Shown here: positions 3,014 to 13,658 of the stretch, piece by piece
Position numbering within the stretch: the stretch's first letter is position 1
Layout: each line of letters opens with the position of its first letter
DNA from: Candidatus Heimdallarchaeota archaeon
Lineage (GTDB): Archaea; Asgardarchaeota; Heimdallarchaeia; JABLTI01
Direction: 5' to 3'
Length of the DNA: 13,836 nucleotides
NCBI GenBank assembly: GCA_019058275.1
Contig: JAHLVW010000113.1
Coordinates: forward strand, 1 to 13,836
Program-made: the position numbers and the translations under genes
The notes under the pieces: model-generated
What the model saw: only the letters and a program-made list of their open reading frames with translations
The model's database searches: none
What the model was told of the DNA's origin: nothing

Positions 3014-4567
3014 CTAATACCCCCAATTAATATAAAATGTATATGTTCCCCAAGTACTTTGTATATACATCACTGATTCCTCATCTTCACTGTCATATTT
3101 ATCATCATACCAGTCTTTGATATCTGGACCAATATCCGTTACTGTTACTTGGCATGTTCCTTCATAAGCCACAGAAAAGAAAAACGCCATTTCATCTTTA
3201 GGTACCACCACTGTACCGCCTGAAATAACATCATGTCCCCAGCAATAGTTTGAATATGAGTCTCCATATACATTCATATAATGCTTTTCCCTAAATGACC
3301 AACTTTCTAAACATTCATTATGGTCACCAGAAGCAAAGCTATCTAAGCCATAGCCTTTACAAGCAGCTATCCAAAGCAAAACCTTAGTACTCTCAGATGT
3401 AATATCATCTATTAAATTCTCATATTCTGATAGCTTTACAACATTTGTCCACCATAGTCCGAGAATGTTATGTGATGTCCCAGTCATTGTATAATGGTTT
3501 CCACCCCATTTTATCCCATGACTATTAGCAAAAACGATAAGTTTCCCAGTAAGTCCTAATTGGCTATCAGCATAAGTAAGCATATTTTCAAGATTATTAT
3601 CATCTGTTTGAGTTGAGTTTCCATCCATGCAGTAAGTAACACACCAACCATAATCCAAGATACCTGCTTTGTATTCATCTGGTGCTGATGATCTTACACA
3701 TCCAAGGATGAAACTTCGGCATTCTATAGGAGGATAATCAAGTTTATCAGATAATACATATTTGAAGTTACTTGTACCAAAAATCACTGCCCACATACTA
3801 CTGCTACCAGTACCTGGTGTTGTGGTTGAGAAACTACTTGTACCCTTTCCTTTAATTTCGTATTCAGTGGCAGCATCTTCCAGAGCAAGCTCATGATTAA
3901 CTCCGCGAATTGGTATAATAATCTCAGTGCTACCATCAAAAAATGGATATAGCATCGTTTCAAAAATTAAGTTATCAAAAGATAAACGAAATTCTTCAAT
4001 ATAATGAATATTTGGTATATATTCCGGTGTTTCGTAGAATGTTCCATTAATTTCTGTTGTGATATTTTTCTCATACCCATAAGGACCACCACTGATATCG
4101 ATTATTCGCAGATAATAGATTCGTTCATCAGCTTTGACATACTCTTCATTAGTAAATCCAAAAGTCGATAAGTTACTATCCATAGTTAATCTATCTCGTT
4201 TATCACTAACAGATCTATCCAATGAATTATGGTTCTTAGACCAAATCATTTTCTCTTTTATCAGATGATTAGCTTTCATCAATGGTTCATTTGGTGACTT
4301 GTATCCCAAAGAAATTTCTAAATTAGCTGAATTATTGCATACTAAGTCAAGTTTGATTGAACTTTGTTGAAGCTCATGTTTTGTAAAATAAGCTTCTGTG
4401 TCCACCATTTTAGCTGTGCCTTTAACTATTCCTGGCACTGGTTTATCAAGTAGATATCCTGCTCTATATTTCTGGTCATAATTTATTAATACAACTGTTG
4501 AAGATATAACACTAAGTGATAGAAGTAAAATTACAACCCCTCTTAATTTTCCCTTCATATTATTCAA
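3014..4567 (-). CDS. Exported/membrane-anchored caspase-like (clan CD, C14/C13-like) cysteine peptidase with an N-terminal P-domain-like beta-sandwich
   Basis: N-terminal signal/TM and a Ser/Thr linker (TSSFSTTTPGTGSSS). The C-terminal domain has WAVIFGTSNF (first strand), LIVFANSHG (His350) and VLLWIAACKG (Cys403). Confidence 0.68.
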   Translation of the reverse strand: MNNMKGKLRGVVILLLSLSVISSTVVLINYDQKYRAGYLLDKPVPGIVKGTAKMVDTEAYFTKHELQQSSIKLDLVCNNSANLEISLGYKSPNEPLMKANHLIKEKMIWSKNHNSLDRSVSDKRDRLTMDSNLSTFGFTNEEYVKADERIYYLRIIDISGGPYGYEKNITTEINGTFYETPEYIPNIHYIEEFRLSFDNLIFETMLYPFFDGSTEIIIPIRGVNHELALEDAATEYEIKGKGTSSFSTTTPGTGSSSMWAVIFGTSNFKYVLSDKLDYPPIECRSFILGCVRSSAPDEYKAGILDYGWCVTYCMDGNSTQTDDNNLENMLTYADSQLGLTGKLIVFANSHGIKWGGNHYTMTGTSHNILGLWWTNVVKLSEYENLIDDITSESTKVLLWIAACKGYGLDSFASGDHNECLESWSFREKHYMNVYGDSYSNYCWGHDVISGGTVVVPKDEMAFFFSVAYEGTCQVTVTDIGPDIKDWYDDKYDSEDEESVMYIQSTWGTYTFYINWGY

Positions 4568-5022: not shown

Positions 5023-6243
5023 ATGGCATTCTTTGACAAATATAGAGAAAAAGCTGAAAATGAGTTGCTAGTCGAAGTAAGAATGGCTAAAGAACTCGGT
5101 TACTATCCTTATTTCAAAGAACTTTGTAGTGAACAAGGACCTGTTGTGGATATTTGTGGTAGAGAAGTAATTATGCTTGGCTCAAATAATTACTTGGGTA
5201 TGACAACAAATCCAAAAGTGAAAGCTGCTGCAAAAAAAGCAATCGATGAATTTGGTGTTGGCTCCACTGGTTCGAGACTGCTTAATGGAACTATGGAACT
5301 TCATGTAGAATTAGAAAAACGTTTAGCTAATTTCTTTGGCACAGAAGAAGCAGTAATCTTTTCAACAGGAATGCAAGCAAATCTTGGGACACTATCATGT
5401 TTCTTAGATAAAGATGATTGGGTAATCTCAGATGAACAAAACCATGCGTCCATAATAGATGGCATCAGACTAGGAAGAATTACTTCTGATCGAAAAAAGA
5501 TTTACAAACATAATGATATGGATGATCTCAAGAGATGTTTAAAAGAAATACCAAAAGGTGAACATGCACTAATTGTCACTGATGGTGTTTTCTCTATGCA
5601 TGGTGATATTGCTCCTTTGAATGTTATCACTGAATTAGCTGAACAATATGGTGCTGGAGTCTATGTAGATGATGCCCATGCTGTAGGCGTTATGGGATCA
5701 AATGGCAGAGGAACAGCACATCATTTTGGCGTTCAAGATAAAGTAGATATCATTATGGGTACTTTTTCCAAGAGTTTTGCTTCTATAGGAGGTTATGTTG
5801 CTGGCTCAGAATCCATTTGCCAATGGATTAAACATCGTGCTAGATCTTTAATCTTTAGTGCAAGTGCTCCACCAGCTTCAGTTGCTACTGTAATAGCAAT
5901 TCTTGATATCGTTGAAAAAGATGATTCTATTCGAAAGAAACTATGGTCAAATACAAAACGTTTGCGAGAAGGATATTTGGATGCAGGATTCGACATAGGC
6001 AGTTCAGAAACACCAATCATACCAATAATCGTTGGGAATGACATGCTAACATTTCAATTCTTCAAGAATCTTTTTGAAGAAACTCCTAGAAGCGTTTATA
6101 CTAATCCTGTTCGTGTTCCTGCAGTTCCACAAGGTGGTCAACTTTTGCGAACTTCTTGTCAAGCATCTTTTGAATATGAAGTTCTTGATGAAGCAGTAGA
6201 GATTATCACAAAACATGGAAAAGAACTTGCAATAATTAGTTGA
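5023..6243 (+). CDS. PLP-dependent alpha-oxoamine synthase (AOS family), most like bacterial serine palmitoyltransferase; BioF/KBL not excluded
   Basis: Motifs GSNNYLG, GSRLLNGT, NHASIIDG (His141), DGVFSM.GD, DDAH and GTFSKS (PLP Lys250). GYYPYF near the N-terminus and IFSAS.PP are typical of Bacteroidetes-type SPT. Confidence 0.9.
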   Translation: MAFFDKYREKAENELLVEVRMAKELGYYPYFKELCSEQGPVVDICGREVIMLGSNNYLGMTTNPKVKAAAKKAIDEFGVGSTGSRLLNGTMELHVELEKRLANFFGTEEAVIFSTGMQANLGTLSCFLDKDDWVISDEQNHASIIDGIRLGRITSDRKKIYKHNDMDDLKRCLKEIPKGEHALIVTDGVFSMHGDIAPLNVITELAEQYGAGVYVDDAHAVGVMGSNGRGTAHHFGVQDKVDIIMGTFSKSFASIGGYVAGSESICQWIKHRARSLIFSASAPPASVATVIAILDIVEKDDSIRKKLWSNTKRLREGYLDAGFDIGSSETPIIPIIVGNDMLTFQFFKNLFEETPRSVYTNPVRVPAVPQGGQLLRTSCQASFEYEVLDEAVEIITKHGKELAIIS

Positions 6244-6249
6244 AAGTAA

Positions 6250-6296
6250 TGATTAAACATACACTTTTGTGTGTTTAATCAACCACTACTTTTTTT
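6250..6296 (+). terminator. Hairpin plus T-tract after the SPT-like gene
   Basis: TGATTAAACATACA-CTTT-TGTGTGTTTAATCA forms a 14-bp stem with one G-U pair (6250-6281), followed by T7 at 6290-6296. Confidence 0.6.
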
Positions 6297-6359
6297 CTCA
6301 AAATTTATTTATACTAACATTTCATGTAGTTACATTACTTTGGATGTTAAGTTGATTTT

Positions 6360-7853
6360 TTGGTTTGGCGATTCATAATGGAGAGGAACAGTTCTTCTGA
6401 TATTACATCAGAGGGAGTAAAAGAACCAGAAGTAATAGAACTAGCAAGAGTAGATGAAGCTAAAACAACTAGTAAAAAAAACATTCTTTATTGGGCATTC
6501 TATGATGCTGCAGATACTGTTTTTGCTATGGCAATAATATCAATAACCTTGTTTCAATGGGGGGAACTTGCTGGTATGAAAGAGGGTTTTTCTTTCTATA
6601 ATGCCCATTTAATGGTTAGTACTTTCCTTATGATATCGAATATTCTTGTAGCGATTTTAATGCCTATTTTCGGAGCTCATTCAGATATAATTGGGAGAAG
6701 GAAACCTATAGTGCTTATTTTTGCTTCATTGACAATAATATTAACACCTTTAATTGTTATTACTCGGAAATTTGTTTTAGGTTTGGTTATTTTCACTATT
6801 GCAAATATTTGTTATCAAGCTGCTAATCTTTACTATGAATCAATGCTACCTTATATTAGTGATACCAAATCTCGAGCTAAGGTGTCAGCATTTGCCATAG
6901 CATTTGGTTACATTGGGACAATTGTGTCTGTAGTTCTAATTTTTGTTTTACCGATACTTTTTGGTGAAGCAACAGATGCTGATGATGTAATGAAATATTT
7001 TGTTTCTCGAGAATTTATTGAGCTTAATTGGGTTTTCTGGATGTTCATCTTTGCTGCTATATTTTACTTGCTTCTTGCAATTCCCTTTTTCTTTACAAAA
7101 GAAAGAGCTGCTAAATTCGAAAAAAGGGAAAACTTAAGTAAAGTTATCCGAAGCTCCTTTGTTCAACTTGGTAGAACTACAAAAGAGATCTTTAAAGAAA
7201 ATCGCAATATGGTTATATTTATTTTCAGCTGGTTTTTAATTAACGATGCAATCGGAACAGCAATTGCTGTTTTAGTGGACTACTTAAGAGAGGGGTTAGG
7301 TTTTCAAGAAAGAATTGCTGGTGTTATTCTAATTATTGGAATTATTGTTGGCATTGGTTTTCTTTACTTAATGGGTCCGACAATAGACAAGAAGGGTCCA
7401 AAATTTGGTTTAGTTATTACTGCAATAACTTGGGCATTAGGAATAATACTTATAGTTTTAGCTGGGATAAACAGTAAAATTAGATTCTTTGTTTACATTG
7501 GTTCCATATTTCTCTCTTTTGGAATGGGTTCTGTTTTTATTGTGGGACGACAATTTATCCTAGAATTATCTCCTCCAAATAAGATTGGCCAATATATGGG
7601 TTTCAAGAAAATCTCTGGGAAAGCTAGTGCTGCCTTAGGTCCTTTGATCTTTTCAAGTATTCTTGCATCAGGTAAGCTATTAGGTAAGACAATAGCATAT
7701 CAGTTAGCAATATCATCACTTCTTGGCTTCTTTGTAATTGGGGTTGTTATTGGATTATTTATCAAAAATTATCATCCATTGTACATAAAAGGACAAAGAT
7801 TCCCATATGCTGGTGAAAAAATAGAAAATGAAGGCGTTAAGGATAACGCCTAA
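6360..7853 (+). CDS. MFS transporter, ATG22/UMF1-like family (ATG at 6378 is the more likely start)
   Basis: About 12 TM helices. N-terminal WAFYDAADTVF, MFS motif A (G.HSDIIGRRK), YYESMLP..S, and second-half motif DKKGPK. Confidence 0.88.
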   Translation: MVWRFIMERNSSSDITSEGVKEPEVIELARVDEAKTTSKKNILYWAFYDAADTVFAMAIISITLFQWGELAGMKEGFSFYNAHLMVSTFLMISNILVAILMPIFGAHSDIIGRRKPIVLIFASLTIILTPLIVITRKFVLGLVIFTIANICYQAANLYYESMLPYISDTKSRAKVSAFAIAFGYIGTIVSVVLIFVLPILFGEATDADDVMKYFVSREFIELNWVFWMFIFAAIFYLLLAIPFFFTKERAAKFEKRENLSKVIRSSFVQLGRTTKEIFKENRNMVIFIFSWFLINDAIGTAIAVLVDYLREGLGFQERIAGVILIIGIIVGIGFLYLMGPTIDKKGPKFGLVITAITWALGIILIVLAGINSKIRFFVYIGSIFLSFGMGSVFIVGRQFILELSPPNKIGQYMGFKKISGKASAALGPLIFSSILASGKLLGKTIAYQLAISSLLGFFVIGVVIGLFIKNYHPLYIKGQRFPYAGEKIENEGVKDNA

Positions 7854-7860
7854 GATTGCT

Positions 7861-8493
7861 TCAACTTTGAATTAGTTTTAAGAAATATTCATGGAATCGG
7901 AAGTCGTGTGTTAATTCTGGATGGAAAGTAACTGCAAGGAGTTTATCTTGTTTGGCAGCGAAAATTTCTTCTGAATTCCTGCAGAGAACTTCAACATTCT
8001 TTTTCACTGAAGTAATTATTGGAGCACGAATGAAAACACCTGGAAAAGGTTTCTTTCCTAGTACATCGATTAACAATTCCTTTTCAAAGGATTCTTGTTG
8101 TCTTCCATACTTATTCCTAACTACTTCTATATCCATTAATTCAAGAAGTGTTTGAGAAAACTCTTTCACAACATTGTCTGATGAGGTTTTTGATAGCATA
8201 ATAGTTCCAGCACAGGTACCAAATATCGCCAAGCCATTCTTGACTTTCTCTTTTATTTTATTGATTAATTTGTCACCAAATCGCATTTCAGAGACAAGTC
8301 GACTCATGACTGTGCTTTCTCCTCCTGGGATTATCAAACCATCTAATAGCTCTATTTCTTCTGGTTTCTTAACCCAAATGGTATTAGGTTTATACCCGTT
8401 TTTCTTTAGAACTTCATTCATCATGTTAACATGTTCAAGAACATCACCTTGAACTGCAAGAACACCAATTGCTATACTTTTCTTCATTGACAT
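7861..8493 (-). CDS. pdxT: PLP synthase glutaminase subunit PdxT
   Basis: GVLAVQGDV.EH, IIPGGEST, GTCAG (catalytic Cys), RN.YGRQ.ESFE, FIRAP, FHPE. The start overlaps the pdxS stop (TAATG). Confidence 0.97.
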   Translation of the reverse strand: MSMKKSIAIGVLAVQGDVLEHVNMMNEVLKKNGYKPNTIWVKKPEEIELLDGLIIPGGESTVMSRLVSEMRFGDKLINKIKEKVKNGLAIFGTCAGTIMLSKTSSDNVVKEFSQTLLELMDIEVVRNKYGRQQESFEKELLIDVLGKKPFPGVFIRAPIITSVKKNVEVLCRNSEEIFAAKQDKLLAVTFHPELTHDFRFHEYFLKLIQS

Positions 8494-9467
8494 TATAATT
8501 TCGCACCTCTGTTTTGCATTTTGAATTTCATCTCAGAACCAGTAAGACCCATCATGGCTTTTTGTTCACTAACCATTTCTTGAGCTTCATAAACAACTTC
8601 TGGATTGTCCCAATAAGATGTTGCTAGGACAACAGCAGAAGCTCTTTGCATTGGATCTTCACTCTTGAAAATGCCTGAACCAACAAAAATTCCATCTGCA
8701 CCAAGCATCATCATTTGTGCTGCATCAGCGGGTGTGGTTATTCCACCTGCAGCAAAATTAACAACAGGTAAACGTCCTATTTTTGCTGTTTCTAAGACAG
8801 TATCATAAGAGCATGTCATTTCTCTTGATTTGAAAAGTAATTGCTGATAATCTTCAACTTCGAGAAGTCGCTTAATCTCATTGATTTCACCATTCACAAG
8901 TCTGATATGTCGAATAGCTTCAGCAACATTGCCAGTTCCGGGTTCGCCTTTTGTTCTAATCATAGCTGCCCCCTCATCTATACGACGAAGAGCACTGCCA
9001 AGATCTAAAGCTCCACAAACAAAAGGTGCTGCAAAATCCCACTTCCAAATATGTCTTAGCTCATCTGCAGGTGTTAGTACCTCTGATTCATCAATACAGT
9101 CTGCACCTGTTTCCTGTAAAACTTTTGCTTCGTAGGTGTGACCTAATCGACATTTAGCCATAACAGGGATAGTTATCGCTTCAAGAATATCGCAAATGAT
9201 TGGAATCGAAGCTGGTCTGGCAACACCACCAGCTCTGCGAACATCAATAGGTAACTTATCGAGAACCATTGCTGCAACCGAGCCCGCATCTTCTGCAATG
9301 TGCGCTTGTTCGACTGAGGTAACGTCCATAATTACCCCACCTTTTGTCATTCGGGCGAAACCTCTTTTCACTTTGTTTGTCCCCCGAGTAACTTTCTCAT
9401 CGGGAGTTAACTGTTGAATTGATAAACCGGTTTTCATGTATGATCTTTCTGGGAATAGATTTTTCAT
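8493..9467 (-). CDS. pdxS: PLP synthase subunit PdxS
   Basis: [68 protein letters not shown] at 9481-9487. Confidence 0.98.
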
Positions 9468-9487
9468 TTTTGAAAATCAACCTCCTC

Positions 9488-9513
9488 AATATACAAGTTA
9501 TAACTTGTATATT
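9488..9513. promoter_or_regulatory. Perfect 26-bp palindrome, putative operator in the pdxS/regulator divergent region
   Basis: AATATACAAGTTA|TAACTTGTATATT, located between the pdxS RBS and the TATA-like box. Confidence 0.75.
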
Positions 9514-9530
9514 AAGGTTGAAACATTAGC

Positions 9531-9540
9531 TTTTTAAATA
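9531..9540. promoter_or_regulatory. Putative bidirectional TATA box
   Basis: TTTTTAAATA reads TTTAAATA on the + strand (towards 9614) and TTTAAAAA on the - strand (towards pdxS; predicted TSS about 9505-9512). Confidence 0.5.
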
Positions 9541-9613
9541 TTGCTTGAAATATTGTTTTTTAGTAAACAGTAAAGGTAATAGAAATAAGAACGATTAATC
9601 CGGAGCGGTCTTT

Positions 9614-11059
9614 GTGAACGAAAAAATTATCTGTCAAAACTGCCAAGCAGAGCTTTATTCCTTACAACGTTCATTGACTTGTCCACAATGCAGCTCTAAT
9701 TCTGTTGAATTTTTATTTGATTCGCTAAATAAATATTTGAAAGTTAATGAAAAGGAAAAGGGAATCTGGAGGTATCGTTCATTTTTACCTAATTTTACAA
9801 AAACAATTACTCTTGGAGAAGGACAAACTCCTTTACGAAAAGCTCTTCATTTATTCTCAAATAAAATCGATTTGTATCTTAAAATTGAAGGTTCAAATCC
9901 AACTGGGTCCTATTTAGATCGAGTTTCACCATTGATGGTTTCAGATGCAATGAGTAGAGAAATGCAGTCATTAGTTTGTGCATCTGATGGCAATCTCGGA
10001 GCTTCCTTAAGTGCATATTGTGCAGCTGCTCAAATCAAATGCTTTTGTGTAACGCCAAAGAGCACATCACCAGAAAAACGAACTCAGATGTCAGCATTTG
10101 GAGCTGATGTTATTGATTATGGAGAAACCATTGATGATAGTTTGGATTTAGCTAAAAAAATGATTGAAAAGGGTCGTTATCAAGCTACTCCTGAATTCAA
10201 TATTCTTACAATTGAAGGGGCAAAAACAATTTCATTTGAAATTGCTGAGCAACAACAGACATTTGATTCAATTGAACAGCTTGATTATATTGTTGTCCCT
10301 ATGGGAAGTGGTGGTTTGCTTTACTCCTTATGGAAAGGATTGAAGCAAGCTAAGAAAATTAATTTAATCCCATCAAAGGCAAAATTACCAAAAATTATTG
10401 GAGTTCAAGTTAAGGGTTATGACACAATAACTAAATCCTTTGATTCTGGAGATCCTCTGCAAGATTCAACTAAAAAGAAACTTGTAAAAAACCAATTAGC
10501 AGATGCAATTATGGTTCGCAACCCTACATTTGGTGAAAAAGCAATTGAGAGTATTAAGGAAAGTAATGGAATAGCTATCACAGTTTCAGAGAAAGATATA
10601 ATATCTGCAAGCAAACTATTGGGGAAGAAGGAAGGAATTTTTGCTGAGTTGAGTAGCGCAACAGTTATAGCTGCAGTTGATAAACTAACTGAAGAAAAAA
10701 TTCTCCTTCAAAATTCATCAGTTTTGGCTATCATTACTGCAAGTGGTCTTAAAACTTCCAGAGCTTTCCAAAAAAGTACTACTCAAGATAAAAAGGTTGA
10801 ATCATTTAGAAGTATGGGAACAAAGGTAGAAATTTTACGAATCATAGATTCTGGTGAATCTAATTTTGGCTATGGAATTTGGAAGTCATTAGGACAATCT
10901 ATATCATTACAAGCAATTTATCAGCATCTAAAAGAATTGCTAAATACAACTCTAATTGCTGAACTAGAATCAGATGATCGACAAAAGAAATATGTAATAA
11001 GCACGAAAGGAAGAAGATTAATAGAAAAAATGGGAGAGTTAGAGGAGCTACTTGTCTAA
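9614..11059 (+). CDS. Threonine-synthase-like (fold type II PLP) protein lacking the Schiff-base Lys, fused to a C-terminal PadR-like wHTH; putative transcription regulator
   Basis: N-terminal CxxC...CxxC. ThrC motifs WRY..LP, LGEGQTPL, EG.NPTGSYLDR (K->L101), ASDGN, EGAKTI.FEI.EQ, VPMGSGG, EGIFAE.SSA, TASGLK. Residues 401-481 read IL.....GYGIWK.....SLQAIYQHLKEL...LI.....KKY.IS.KG. Confidence 0.85.
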   Translation: MNEKIICQNCQAELYSLQRSLTCPQCSSNSVEFLFDSLNKYLKVNEKEKGIWRYRSFLPNFTKTITLGEGQTPLRKALHLFSNKIDLYLKIEGSNPTGSYLDRVSPLMVSDAMSREMQSLVCASDGNLGASLSAYCAAAQIKCFCVTPKSTSPEKRTQMSAFGADVIDYGETIDDSLDLAKKMIEKGRYQATPEFNILTIEGAKTISFEIAEQQQTFDSIEQLDYIVVPMGSGGLLYSLWKGLKQAKKINLIPSKAKLPKIIGVQVKGYDTITKSFDSGDPLQDSTKKKLVKNQLADAIMVRNPTFGEKAIESIKESNGIAITVSEKDIISASKLLGKKEGIFAELSSATVIAAVDKLTEEKILLQNSSVLAIITASGLKTSRAFQKSTTQDKKVESFRSMGTKVEILRIIDSGESNFGYGIWKSLGQSISLQAIYQHLKELLNTTLIAELESDDRQKKYVISTKGRRLIEKMGELEELLV

Positions 11060-11589: not shown

Positions 11590-12063
11590 CTAGAAATCTA
11601 TCTTAATACCGCCTGCTTTTAAGTGCTGTTTGTCATGTTGCCATAGGTCAAGGATTCTGTCTGTTCTATAAAATGATTTTTCATCCTCAACTGTTTCTGG
11701 GAATTTAATTAACTTTTCATATAAGGTAATTATTTTGTAACGTGTTTCCTTATATTTTTGCCTAGCTTCATCAAGTGTCAAATTGCTCATTTTTTCTAAA
11801 ACGTAATCATTCCACTCGACATAGTCCATATTCATCTTTTTGAACTCAAATTCACATTGATCTAAAGAATCATTCATTTTTCCTTCGCAAATTTTTGTGA
11901 ATTCATCATCCCAAGACCATAAATGCAACAGGAGTTCTTTTAATCCCCACCCATTAGGAAGAGAAAATGATACAGGTAAATCAAGAATTAGCTCGGTTAT
12001 TTTTTTAGTGTTTAGCATTTTTTGTTCTAAAGAAATCTTATTTGTCATAAGTAAACATGACAA
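11590..12063 (-). CDS. DinB/ClbS/DfsB-like four-helix bundle protein
   Basis: W.LKELL.HL.SWD, W-N, and a C-terminal HDKQH His pattern typical of the DinB superfamily. The start may be the ATG at 12048. Confidence 0.72.
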   Translation of the reverse strand: MSCLLMTNKISLEQKMLNTKKITELILDLPVSFSLPNGWGLKELLLHLWSWDDEFTKICEGKMNDSLDQCEFEFKKMNMDYVEWNDYVLEKMSNLTLDEARQKYKETRYKIITLYEKLIKFPETVEDEKSFYRTDRILDLWQHDKQHLKAGGIKIDF

Positions 12064-13328: not shown

Positions 13329-13658
13329 TTATTTTCTTGGACCATTGGTGATCACTGCATGAGCAGCTGCTAAACGGGCTACAGGAACTCTTAATGGAGA
13401 ACAACTGACATAATCCAAGCCAATTCGATAACAGAAATCAATTGATTTTGGTTCACCACCTTGTTTACCACAGATACCTATCTCAATTTCTTTGTACCCC
13501 TTACGACCACCTTCAACAGTCATTTCCATTAGCTGACCAATACCAGCTTGCTCAATGGAAACGAAAGGATCTTCATCGAGTATTCCAAGTTCAAGATACA
13601 GACCAATAAATTTACCAGCATCGTCACGGGAGAACCCCATACCCATTTAGTGAAGATC
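13329..13658 (-). pseudogene. ppdK: Pyruvate phosphate dikinase 3'-end remnant (copy 2)
   Basis: [16 protein letters not shown]...DPF.SI.Q.G.GQL...[14 protein letters not shown]...[23 protein letters not shown] at 13649-13647 replaces the Gln of NDL.Q, ICGE has become ICGK, and homology ends at about 13658. Confidence 0.9.
13354..13439. repeat. 86-bp perfect direct repeat, copy 2
   Basis: Identical to 12165-12250. Confidence 0.92.

Follow-up and report, generated by a model that had tools for sequence, protein, structure and literature searches.

The 13,836-nucleotide stretch analysed here (the window throughout; contig JAHLVW010000113.1 of a Candidatus Heimdallarchaeota archaeon) carries, divergently from the vitamin B6 synthesis genes pdxS and pdxT, a gene whose product joins a threonine synthase (ThrC)-like domain to a C-terminal winged helix. 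Judged from its sequence, its relatives, and structure models, the protein is probably a dimeric, B6-responsive one-component repressor with a catalytically disabled ThrC fold, which would serve vitamin B6 homeostasis. This agrees with an earlier, sequence-only reading of the same DNA, which had named it a candidate vitamin B6 regulator, and the role is supported by a conserved linkage to B6 genes, by the lack of a compensating lysine, and by a genome-unique palindrome at the target promoters. The alignments and models described below establish the domain architecture, the loss of the lysine that binds pyridoxal 5'-phosphate (PLP), the gene linkage, the conserved palindrome found once in the genome, and the variation of that palindrome among protein clades. 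The gene and the parts of its product are as follows.

9614-11059, + strand: regulator gene, open reading frame (ORF) of 481 aa with a GTG start, encoding a zinc ribbon, a Lys-less ThrC-fold sensor domain, and a PadR-like winged helix
9617-9721, + strand: N-terminal zinc ribbon, residues 2-36, with C7, C10, C23, and C26; strands 2-7 and 31-36 in the model
9761-10744, + strand: fold type II (ThrC-like) domain, residues 50-377, from Pfam PALP and Foldseek; presumed ligand-sensing and dimerising module
9914-9916, + strand: Leu101 (TTA codon) where ThrC has the PLP Schiff-base lysine, NPTGSYLDR compared with NPTGSFKDR
10745-10798, + strand: flexible linker, residues 378-395; predicted local distance difference test score (pLDDT) below 50 over residues 378-400
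10799-11056, + strand: PadR-like winged helix-turn-helix (HTH), residues 396-481, from the model and a profile comparison with PadR structures
10919-10927: invariant YQH, usually followed by Leu, in the presumed recognition helix (residues 432-444); the C-terminal helix spans residues 464-480

The start codon of the ORF is consistent with the N-termini of its homologs. The span of 9468-11059 given in the sequence-only reading takes in the 146-bp intergenic region ahead of the ORF. The motifs that it had listed were found at 228-234 (VPMGSGG), 344-349 (AELSSA), and 375-380 (TASGLK); ASDGN is also present (123-127) but is not kept in the strict sense, as ThrC reads ASTGN and the Thr has become Asp. 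In the Pfam search, the PALP domain was matched at full length over residues 65-375 of the window's protein (E value 1.8e-70), and no GntR or Aminotran_1_2 domain was found in it. A phmmer search against ThrC in the PDB gave an E value of 1.6e-43 at approximately 31% identity. The AlphaFold (AF2) model, built on the family alignment, reached a pLDDT of 85.5 and consisted of the ribbon, a ThrC-like body, a disordered linker, and a winged helix (approximately 396-480) with a long C-terminal helix; in Foldseek, the body resembled ThrC 6cgq_B (E value 9e-29, target template modelling score 0.86). The mean column identity of the family was 51% over 108 sequences, a degree of conservation that argues against a decaying gene.

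The four ribbon cysteines are invariant in the family, which bears out the predicted N-terminal zinc ribbon, and the genuine archaeal ThrC outgroup has them too. The ribbon was therefore inherited rather than added, and according to the alignment it is ancestral to the archaeal ThrC subfamily. The predicted PadR-like domain at the C terminus was likewise recovered in the model, and a family profile of the C-terminal 85 residues matched PadR-family structures with an E value of 3.3e-7; in precomputed annotations, PF03551 or PF14947 is present on many homologs. The homodimer prediction scored 0.82 (best of three controls, 0.00), with a symmetric interface within residues 67-390, in the ThrC-like domain; at least 63% of the contacts agreed among runs, and the partner pLDDT was at least 84. 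Of 30 proteins with solved one-chain pairs, 20 reached the mark set for a homodimer, compared with 1 of 23 proteins whose solved form is a single chain. ThrC dimers have already been solved structurally, so resemblance to known structures may account for the pass.

The position of the Schiff-base lysine was then compared across the family. Leu101 aligns with this lysine in B. subtilis and A. aeolicus ThrC (6cgq, 2zsj). Among 120 listed homologs, the approximately 37 that cover the site at 50-94% identity, all from Heimdall-, Thor-, and Prometheo-type Asgard metagenome-assembled genomes, have Leu or, in a few cases, Met, Gln, or Phe. Because these residues are found clade-wide, Leu101 is not a sequencing error, as had been argued from the TTA codon, which lies at least two base changes from AAA or AAG. 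When each GTDB species was represented by a single genome, the scan gave 407 loci with a relative, of which the best 80 were analysed: 7 of the Leu clade (61-94% identity) and 73 more distant ones (36-42%) from Bathyarchaeia and the Odin, Baldr, Hel, Frey, and Prometheo lineages. The residue at the lysine site was Arg in 58, Lys in 13, Leu in 7, and Ser in 1 of the 79 scored loci; the 72 scored loci of the distant clades had Arg (58), Lys (13), or Ser (1). The expectation that homologs lack the lysine thus held for most of the family but not for those 13 loci, which have an operator of like kind and also target the transporter. Because members with and without the lysine share operator kind and target, the role common to the family is independent of it. 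A compensating lysine was considered and ruled out, since the only invariant lysines of the enzyme domain (K90, K155, K204, and K380) are equally invariant in genuine ThrC.

In the family alignment, the lysine-site residue also varied with the pocket (window numbering): Lys occurred with N125 and H/Q128, Arg with N125 and L/M128, Ser with N125 and S128, and Leu with D125 and L128. This covariation of positions 101, 125, and 128 suggests coupled remodelling around the cofactor C4', perhaps with different vitamer preferences.

On profile and pocket comparisons, the window's protein is not the threonine synthase of the cell. Its TIGR00260 (ThrC) score was 150.9-152.1 bits, below the cut-off of 167.1, and two genuine ThrC proteins tested from the loci of relatives scored 369-372 bits. 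These two were among five Bathyarchaeia relatives in which a PALP paralog of 32-33% identity lies divergently next door, and the five paralogs (two confirmed as ThrC) were compared with 108 family members at the pocket. ThrC-invariant residues were replaced in the family, and the replacements were themselves conserved: D/N for T125, L for T128, T for N192, E for S194, V/T/A/S for R199, and GSGG(L/T) for GNAGN. At the substrate-binding positions, the window's protein reads SDGNL, T192/E194, T199, and GSGGL. In T. thermophilus ThrC, the STGNT loop, the Asn-Ser pair, the Arg, and the GNAGN loop bind the substrate, O-phosphohomoserine. By comparison, N127, G231, G233, T375, and S99 are invariant down to 35% identity, and these residues, with G231/G233 in the phosphate loop, are PLP contacts of fold type II enzymes. 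Overall, the pocket has kept the PLP-contact residues and has lost the Schiff-base lysine and the residues at ThrC substrate-binding positions.

No other ThrC was found in the window's 4.12-Mb genome (92.8% complete), and the same genome gave no match to homoserine dehydrogenase (PF00742) and none above cut-off to homoserine kinase (TIGR00191). Because a second ThrC, homoserine dehydrogenase, and ThrB above cut-off are all lacking, there is no evident threonine pathway for the protein to serve, and the assembly, at this completeness, suggests threonine auxotrophy or an unfamiliar route. The genome also encodes a 433-aa protein (C11:58531-59490; L015:1387-2688, - strand) whose score of 490 bits exceeds the cut-off of 325 bits for cysteate synthase (TIGR03844). 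Cysteate synthase is a ThrC paralog of methanogen coenzyme M synthesis and is unexpected in a Heimdall-type archaeon.

In comparison with ThrC (TIGR00260; PDB 6cgq, 2zsj, and 1uim), the protein shares the fold, the N-terminal zinc ribbon of the archaeal subfamily, and a dimer interface predicted in the ThrC-like domain; it differs in the absent Schiff-base lysine, the replaced pocket, the extra linker and winged helix, the score below cut-off, and its separate clade. As the sequence-only reading had anticipated, databases label proteins of this family "threonine synthase" or "pyridoxal-phosphate dependent enzyme". The model NF004170 (PRK05638, "threonine synthase") covers the whole architecture including the C-terminal domain, with residues 5-473 aligned to model positions 2-441 of 442, and the window's protein remained below its cut-off (358.9 compared with 421 bits); none of 14 control genomes had a match above that cut-off. 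The name of this model is probably a mis-annotation that spreads to Lys-less fusions.

A protein that remains an enzyme, possibly bifunctional like the riboflavin regulator RbkR, would use PLP without an internal aldimine or catalyse another reaction of B6 metabolism, and its winged helix would be an accessory. The fold is whole and strongly conserved, the lysine is kept in some family members, and RbkR offers an archaeal precedent for an enzyme-regulator fusion (PMC8305020). We nevertheless regard this as improbable, given that the lysine is absent from the whole clade of the window and from most of the family in the counts above, that no replacement lysine has arisen, that Lys and non-Lys members are alike in operator kind and target, and that the residues at the ThrC substrate-phosphate-binding positions are gone.

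The repressor reading is further supported by the genes that surround the family. In the window, these are the following.

8493-9467, - strand: pdxS, PLP synthase lyase subunit, presumed target; NF003215 427.5 bits (cut-off 395), PF01680 E value 1e-89
7861-8493, - strand: pdxT, PLP synthase glutaminase subunit; TIGR03800 204.8 bits (cut-off 105.6)

Both genes scored above curated cut-offs, which confirmed the head-to-head arrangement described by the sequence-only reading, and their 1-nt overlap indicates that they form one operon. A divergent pdxS-pdxT pair lies upstream of the regulator gene in all seven Leu-clade loci as well as in the window; the gap between the naively called ORFs is 84-154 bp. 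Upstream neighbours in the distant clades were heterogeneous, and the downstream neighbour, usually on the same strand, was an energy-coupling factor (ECF)-type S component (PF07155) in 59 of the 68 loci with a callable neighbour; one locus each had pdxS-pdxT (L085) or pdxJ (L076) downstream instead. NCBIfam gave only weak, sub-threshold matches for the substrate of the S component, and a profile search against the PDB decided the matter: the profile of 24 S components matched 4HZU chain S at 4e-25, RibU at 1e-6, and FolT at 0.013. 4HZU_S is the L. brevis HmpT/PdxU2 protein, which bound pyridoxamine by mass spectrometry (PMC4860826). A conserved linkage to B6 genes was thus found both as pdxST (7/7 and the window) and as an HmpT/PdxU2 homolog (59/68), pdxS (1), or pdxJ (1).

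The target also followed the way in which a genome obtains B6. No PF07155 transporter was matched in the window's genome, which has pdxST, and neither pdxS nor pdxJ was matched in five Bathyarchaeia genomes (L086, L034, L097, L089, and L044), two of which are deposited as whole chromosomes; in these five, the palindrome stands before the transporter gene as the presumed target. These five organisms are probably B6 auxotrophs that rely on the PdxU2-like importer encoded beside the regulator. Three loci were filed at odds with their content: L085 under Limnocylindrales (Chloroflexota) and L038 under Desulfaltia, yet with Bathyarchaeia-type regulator loci, and L022 under Bathyarchaeia but within the Heimdall-type Leu clade. 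They are probably mis-binned contigs.

The intergenic region between pdxS and the regulator gene contains a candidate operator.

9482-9486, - strand: pdxS ribosome-binding site GGAGG (CCTCC on the + strand), 14 nt upstream of the ATG at 9467
9488-9513: perfect 26-bp palindrome, candidate operator, with a 22-bp core at 9490-9511, TATACAAGTT-AT-AACTTGTATA
9531-9542: TATA-like element TTTTTAAATATT, located from the sequence between the divergent genes

The palindrome lies between the ribosome-binding site and the TATA-like element. It is present in L019-L024 and degenerate in L025, and the TATA-like element is similarly placed in L019-L022 and L025. Under a strict screen (AGTT-NN-AACT core with at most one mismatch and at least 9 of 11 arm positions complementary), seven of the eight Leu-clade loci, window included, had a site. 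The distant clades have a related palindrome, TAGTATAGTT-NN-AACTATACTA, just upstream of the S-component gene, and also before pdxS (L085) and pdxJ (L076). In total, the strict screen gave 58 sites in the expected promoter zones (R and K clades 50, Leu clade 7) and 1 elsewhere in 1.02 Mb. The exact site of the window is the sole exact copy in its 4.1-Mb genome, and in five Bathyarchaeia genomes (1.3-2.2 Mb) the site occurred once per genome at up to three mismatches (scrambled control, 0). A wider regulon was sought in the window's genome; the only other site at up to three mismatches, C1:84262, lies inside a 460-aa ORF, and, as the scrambled control gave an equal result, it was treated as chance. 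The Heimdall-type motif was absent upstream of the regulator gene in Bathyarchaeia loci, and no enriched palindrome was found there.

The outer operator bases differed by protein clade (TATACAAGTT in L, TAGTATAGTT in R, and TATTATAGTT in K), and the residues just before the invariant YQH, in the presumed recognition helix, were also clade-specific. This joint variation is the pattern expected of a transcription factor with its own site. At L047, where the S-component and regulator genes converge, the palindrome is at the far end, by the start of the S-component gene, which indicates that the palindrome tracks the target promoter and not the 3' end of the regulator gene.

Additional elements were seen near the palindrome. 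Two tandem palindromes, TATACAAGTTACAACTTGTATA followed by TATTCAAGTTATAACATGCAAA, one of them an additional and weaker copy, lie between pdxS and the regulator gene in L023 (7859-7900) and L024 (2509-2550). The stretch between the palindrome and the TATA-like element (window 9514-9530; AAGGTTGAAACATTAGC / AAAGTTGAAACATTAAC) is conserved in L019-L022 and L025, and in L020-L022 it forms a second, widely spaced AGTT...AACT inverted repeat that overlaps the TATA-like element. This second repeat is possibly a weaker auxiliary site.

The palindrome might instead be unrelated to the protein, either as a terminator-like hairpin or as the site of another factor, with the neighbourhood a coincidence; its median position in Bathyarchaeia, 36 nt past the regulator stop codon, would suit a terminator. 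In the window and its clade, however, it occupies a divergent promoter region in which no gene ends, and in L047 it lies beyond the convergent target gene, at the start of that gene. The arms are 0-2 nt apart, a loop too short for a hairpin. The site variant follows the protein clade, and there is one site per genome in each genome checked. A terminator hairpin was ruled out as the explanation by the divergent-promoter position, the L047 layout, and the arm spacing, and the alternative as a whole is, in our judgment, highly improbable.

The position of the palindrome at the promoter bears on the sign of regulation. When the TATA-like element of the window is read leftward, the pdxS transcription start would be placed inside the palindrome. 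At many Bathyarchaeia loci, an A/T-rich stretch resembling a TFB recognition element (BRE) and TATA box abuts the palindrome, and the start codon lies a median of 27 nt from the palindrome centre. In both layouts, the transcription start is expected, from the sequence, to fall inside the palindrome. Archaeal repressors that prevent recruitment of the polymerase usually bind over the transcription start.

A transcription factor at the same operator could also respond to a signal other than a B6 vitamer, such as an amino acid or another metabolite (for instance threonine, O-phosphohomoserine, or the kind of PLP-amino acid adduct known from GabR), and would then match B6 supply to amino-acid metabolism. 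The domain is derived from an amino-acid-metabolising enzyme, its new and strongly conserved pocket residues (Q190, A191, T192, and E194) point to a specific ligand other than bare PLP, and five Bathyarchaeia loci have the divergent ThrC-like paralog adjoining, two of them confirmed thrC. The operator, however, is at B6 genes and not at thrC, the PLP-contact residues are invariant, and no threonine pathway was found in the window's genome on which the protein could report. The target shifts between B6 synthesis and B6 uptake from genome to genome, as in end-product feedback, and because it follows the B6 supply mode of the genome, feedback on B6 supply is favoured over a threonine link. A non-B6 signal is unlikely on this evidence, although we give it more weight than the other two alternatives.

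For the B6-responsive repressor, the following mechanism is proposed. Two subunits would pair via their ThrC-like domains, which would bring a PadR-type winged helix from the C terminus of each subunit to the palindrome of 22-26 bp. The bound dimer would block recruitment of RNA polymerase and thereby shut off pdxS-pdxT. Its occupancy would be set by a B6 vitamer, likeliest PLP, held non-covalently in the old cofactor pocket, such that the ligand-bound dimer would repress the B6 supply genes; the proposal extends to DNA binding itself as well as to the ligand and the sign of regulation. Binding of DNA in the PadR manner would be by the predicted homodimer (score 0.82), at the conserved palindrome. 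A broader proposal, which we favour with less assurance, is that the family as a whole comprises the B6 regulators of Archaea, including those of the Asgard lineages: ThrC-derived pseudoenzymes that would sense PLP or another vitamer non-covalently, in which residue 101 (K, R, L, or S) together with 125 and 128 would set the vitamer or adduct, and which would switch on whichever supply route the genome has (pdxST, pdxJ, or a PdxU2-type importer).

Several observations weigh against the repressor reading, which relies throughout on comparative genomics and models. The winged helix of the window's own protein gave only a sub-threshold Pfam match to HTH_45 (21.5 bits compared with a cut-off of 25.5, E value 2e-4), and the winged helices lie outside the confident dimer interface. 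In the window, the palindrome is approximately 18 nt from the TATA-like element and does not abut it as in many Bathyarchaeia loci, so that activation is possible. Relaxing the screen to 8 of 11 arm matches still left 14 of the 72 distant loci with no site, among them the Baldr and Odin loci L026, L027, L028, and L051, which have no B6 gene as a neighbour. The residue at the lysine site is varied (K, R, L, M, Q, F, and S), which could mean clade-specific ligands.

A maximum-likelihood tree rooted on the five ThrC-like paralogs placed the fusion family in one clade, separate from genuine ThrC, with a support of 100 in the Shimodaira-Hasegawa-like approximate likelihood ratio test (SH-aLRT). The L/M/Q/F group formed one clade (SH-aLRT 100), Lys occurred in two clades, Arg was widespread, and Ser was confined to one clade; at least seven changes of the lysine-site residue are needed on this tree. 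The 407 species-level genomes with a relative show that the fusion is not lineage-specific; the sequence-only reading had also mentioned similar ThrC-HTH fusions in other archaea. Among 301 sampled Asgard genomes, 185 had a match at 1e-40 or better, a count that may include genuine ThrC, and the Leu clade was limited to the window's genus and its family. Winged-helix profile matches at 1e-8 were found in 104 of 301 sampled Thermoproteota genomes, the stronger ones mostly at the end of open frames of approximately 435-600 aa.

Among the other genes of the window, two at 5023-7853 (+ strand) lie just past pdxT and convergent with it; they encode a PLP-dependent aminotransferase of class I/II (406 aa) and a major facilitator superfamily (MFS) transporter of Atg22-like type (497 aa), and no operator-like site was found before either gene. 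A 105-aa ORF at 13329-13646 (- strand) resembles the C-terminal domain of PEP-utilising enzymes over profile positions 234-291 of 293 only and looks like a gene fragment or remnant. The ORFs at 3014-4567 (- strand, 517 aa) and 11590-12063 (- strand, 157 aa) had no Pfam match at an E value of 0.01 or below.

The protein was compared with known regulators. Like the bacterial PdxR/MocR proteins, it combines a PLP-enzyme fold with a winged helix, is encoded divergently from pdxST (8/8 Leu-clade loci, window included), and is associated with B6 genes, over which its control is deduced from the operator. MocR proteins have an N-terminal GntR-type HTH and a fold type I domain, whereas the present family has a C-terminal PadR-like HTH and a fold type II domain whose lysine is usually lost. 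The fold type I domain of MocR keeps its PLP lysine, and PdxR activates pdxST; here, the position of the palindrome suggests repression. Because HTH family, HTH position, PLP fold type, and lysine status all differ, the ThrC-fold regulator is not homologous to PdxR and, on these comparisons, is its functional analog. The sequence-only reading had proposed such a convergence, and it is supported by the divergent pdxST arrangement, as for PdxR, in a protein with fold type II and a C-terminal PadR-like HTH. In response to PLP, PdxR governs the pdxU transporter together with the synthesis and salvage of B6, and MocR regulators are stated to be absent from Archaea (PMC5320631).

With PadR regulators (PDB 9qbc, 5dym, and 4esb), the protein shares a winged helix with a C-terminal helix (profile E value 3e-7), but here a PadR module of approximately 85 aa is appended to a 380-aa enzyme-derived domain. 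PadR proteins are dimers on palindromic operators. ThiR is the archaeal thiamine regulator, with an enzyme fold and an HTH. For RbkR, both a regulatory and an enzymatic function are given in PMC8305020. In RbkR (riboflavin) and ThiR (thiamine), as proposed here, an archaeal vitamin-related enzyme fold joined to an HTH controls the genes of that vitamin. The folds are, however, unrelated, RbkR is still enzymatic, and their sensors come from enzymes of their own pathway, whereas the present one comes from a PLP-using enzyme outside the B6 pathway. No ThrC-HTH family or archaeal B6 regulator was described in the literature searched, which covered few subscription journals and included a survey from 2023 on how Bacteria and Archaea metabolise PLP (PMC9997740); the sequence-only reading had named no characterisation of such fusions either. 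Enzyme-derived regulators are already known as a kind, and what would be new here is a ThrC-derived, cofactor-sensing transcription factor.

If the proposed function is true, the gap in B6 regulators would be filled for a large part of Archaea, covering 407 species-level genomes, approximately a third of the sampled Thermoproteota, and many Asgard lineages. It would also correct a widespread mis-annotation that distorts reconstructions of threonine prototrophy in uncultured archaea. The family would be the second independent PLP-enzyme fold turned transcriptional sensor, in this case of fold type II and without the covalent lysine. Furthermore, it would provide a testable 22-bp operator and a marker by which B6 auxotrophs could be told from prototrophs among Bathyarchaeia and Asgard archaea.

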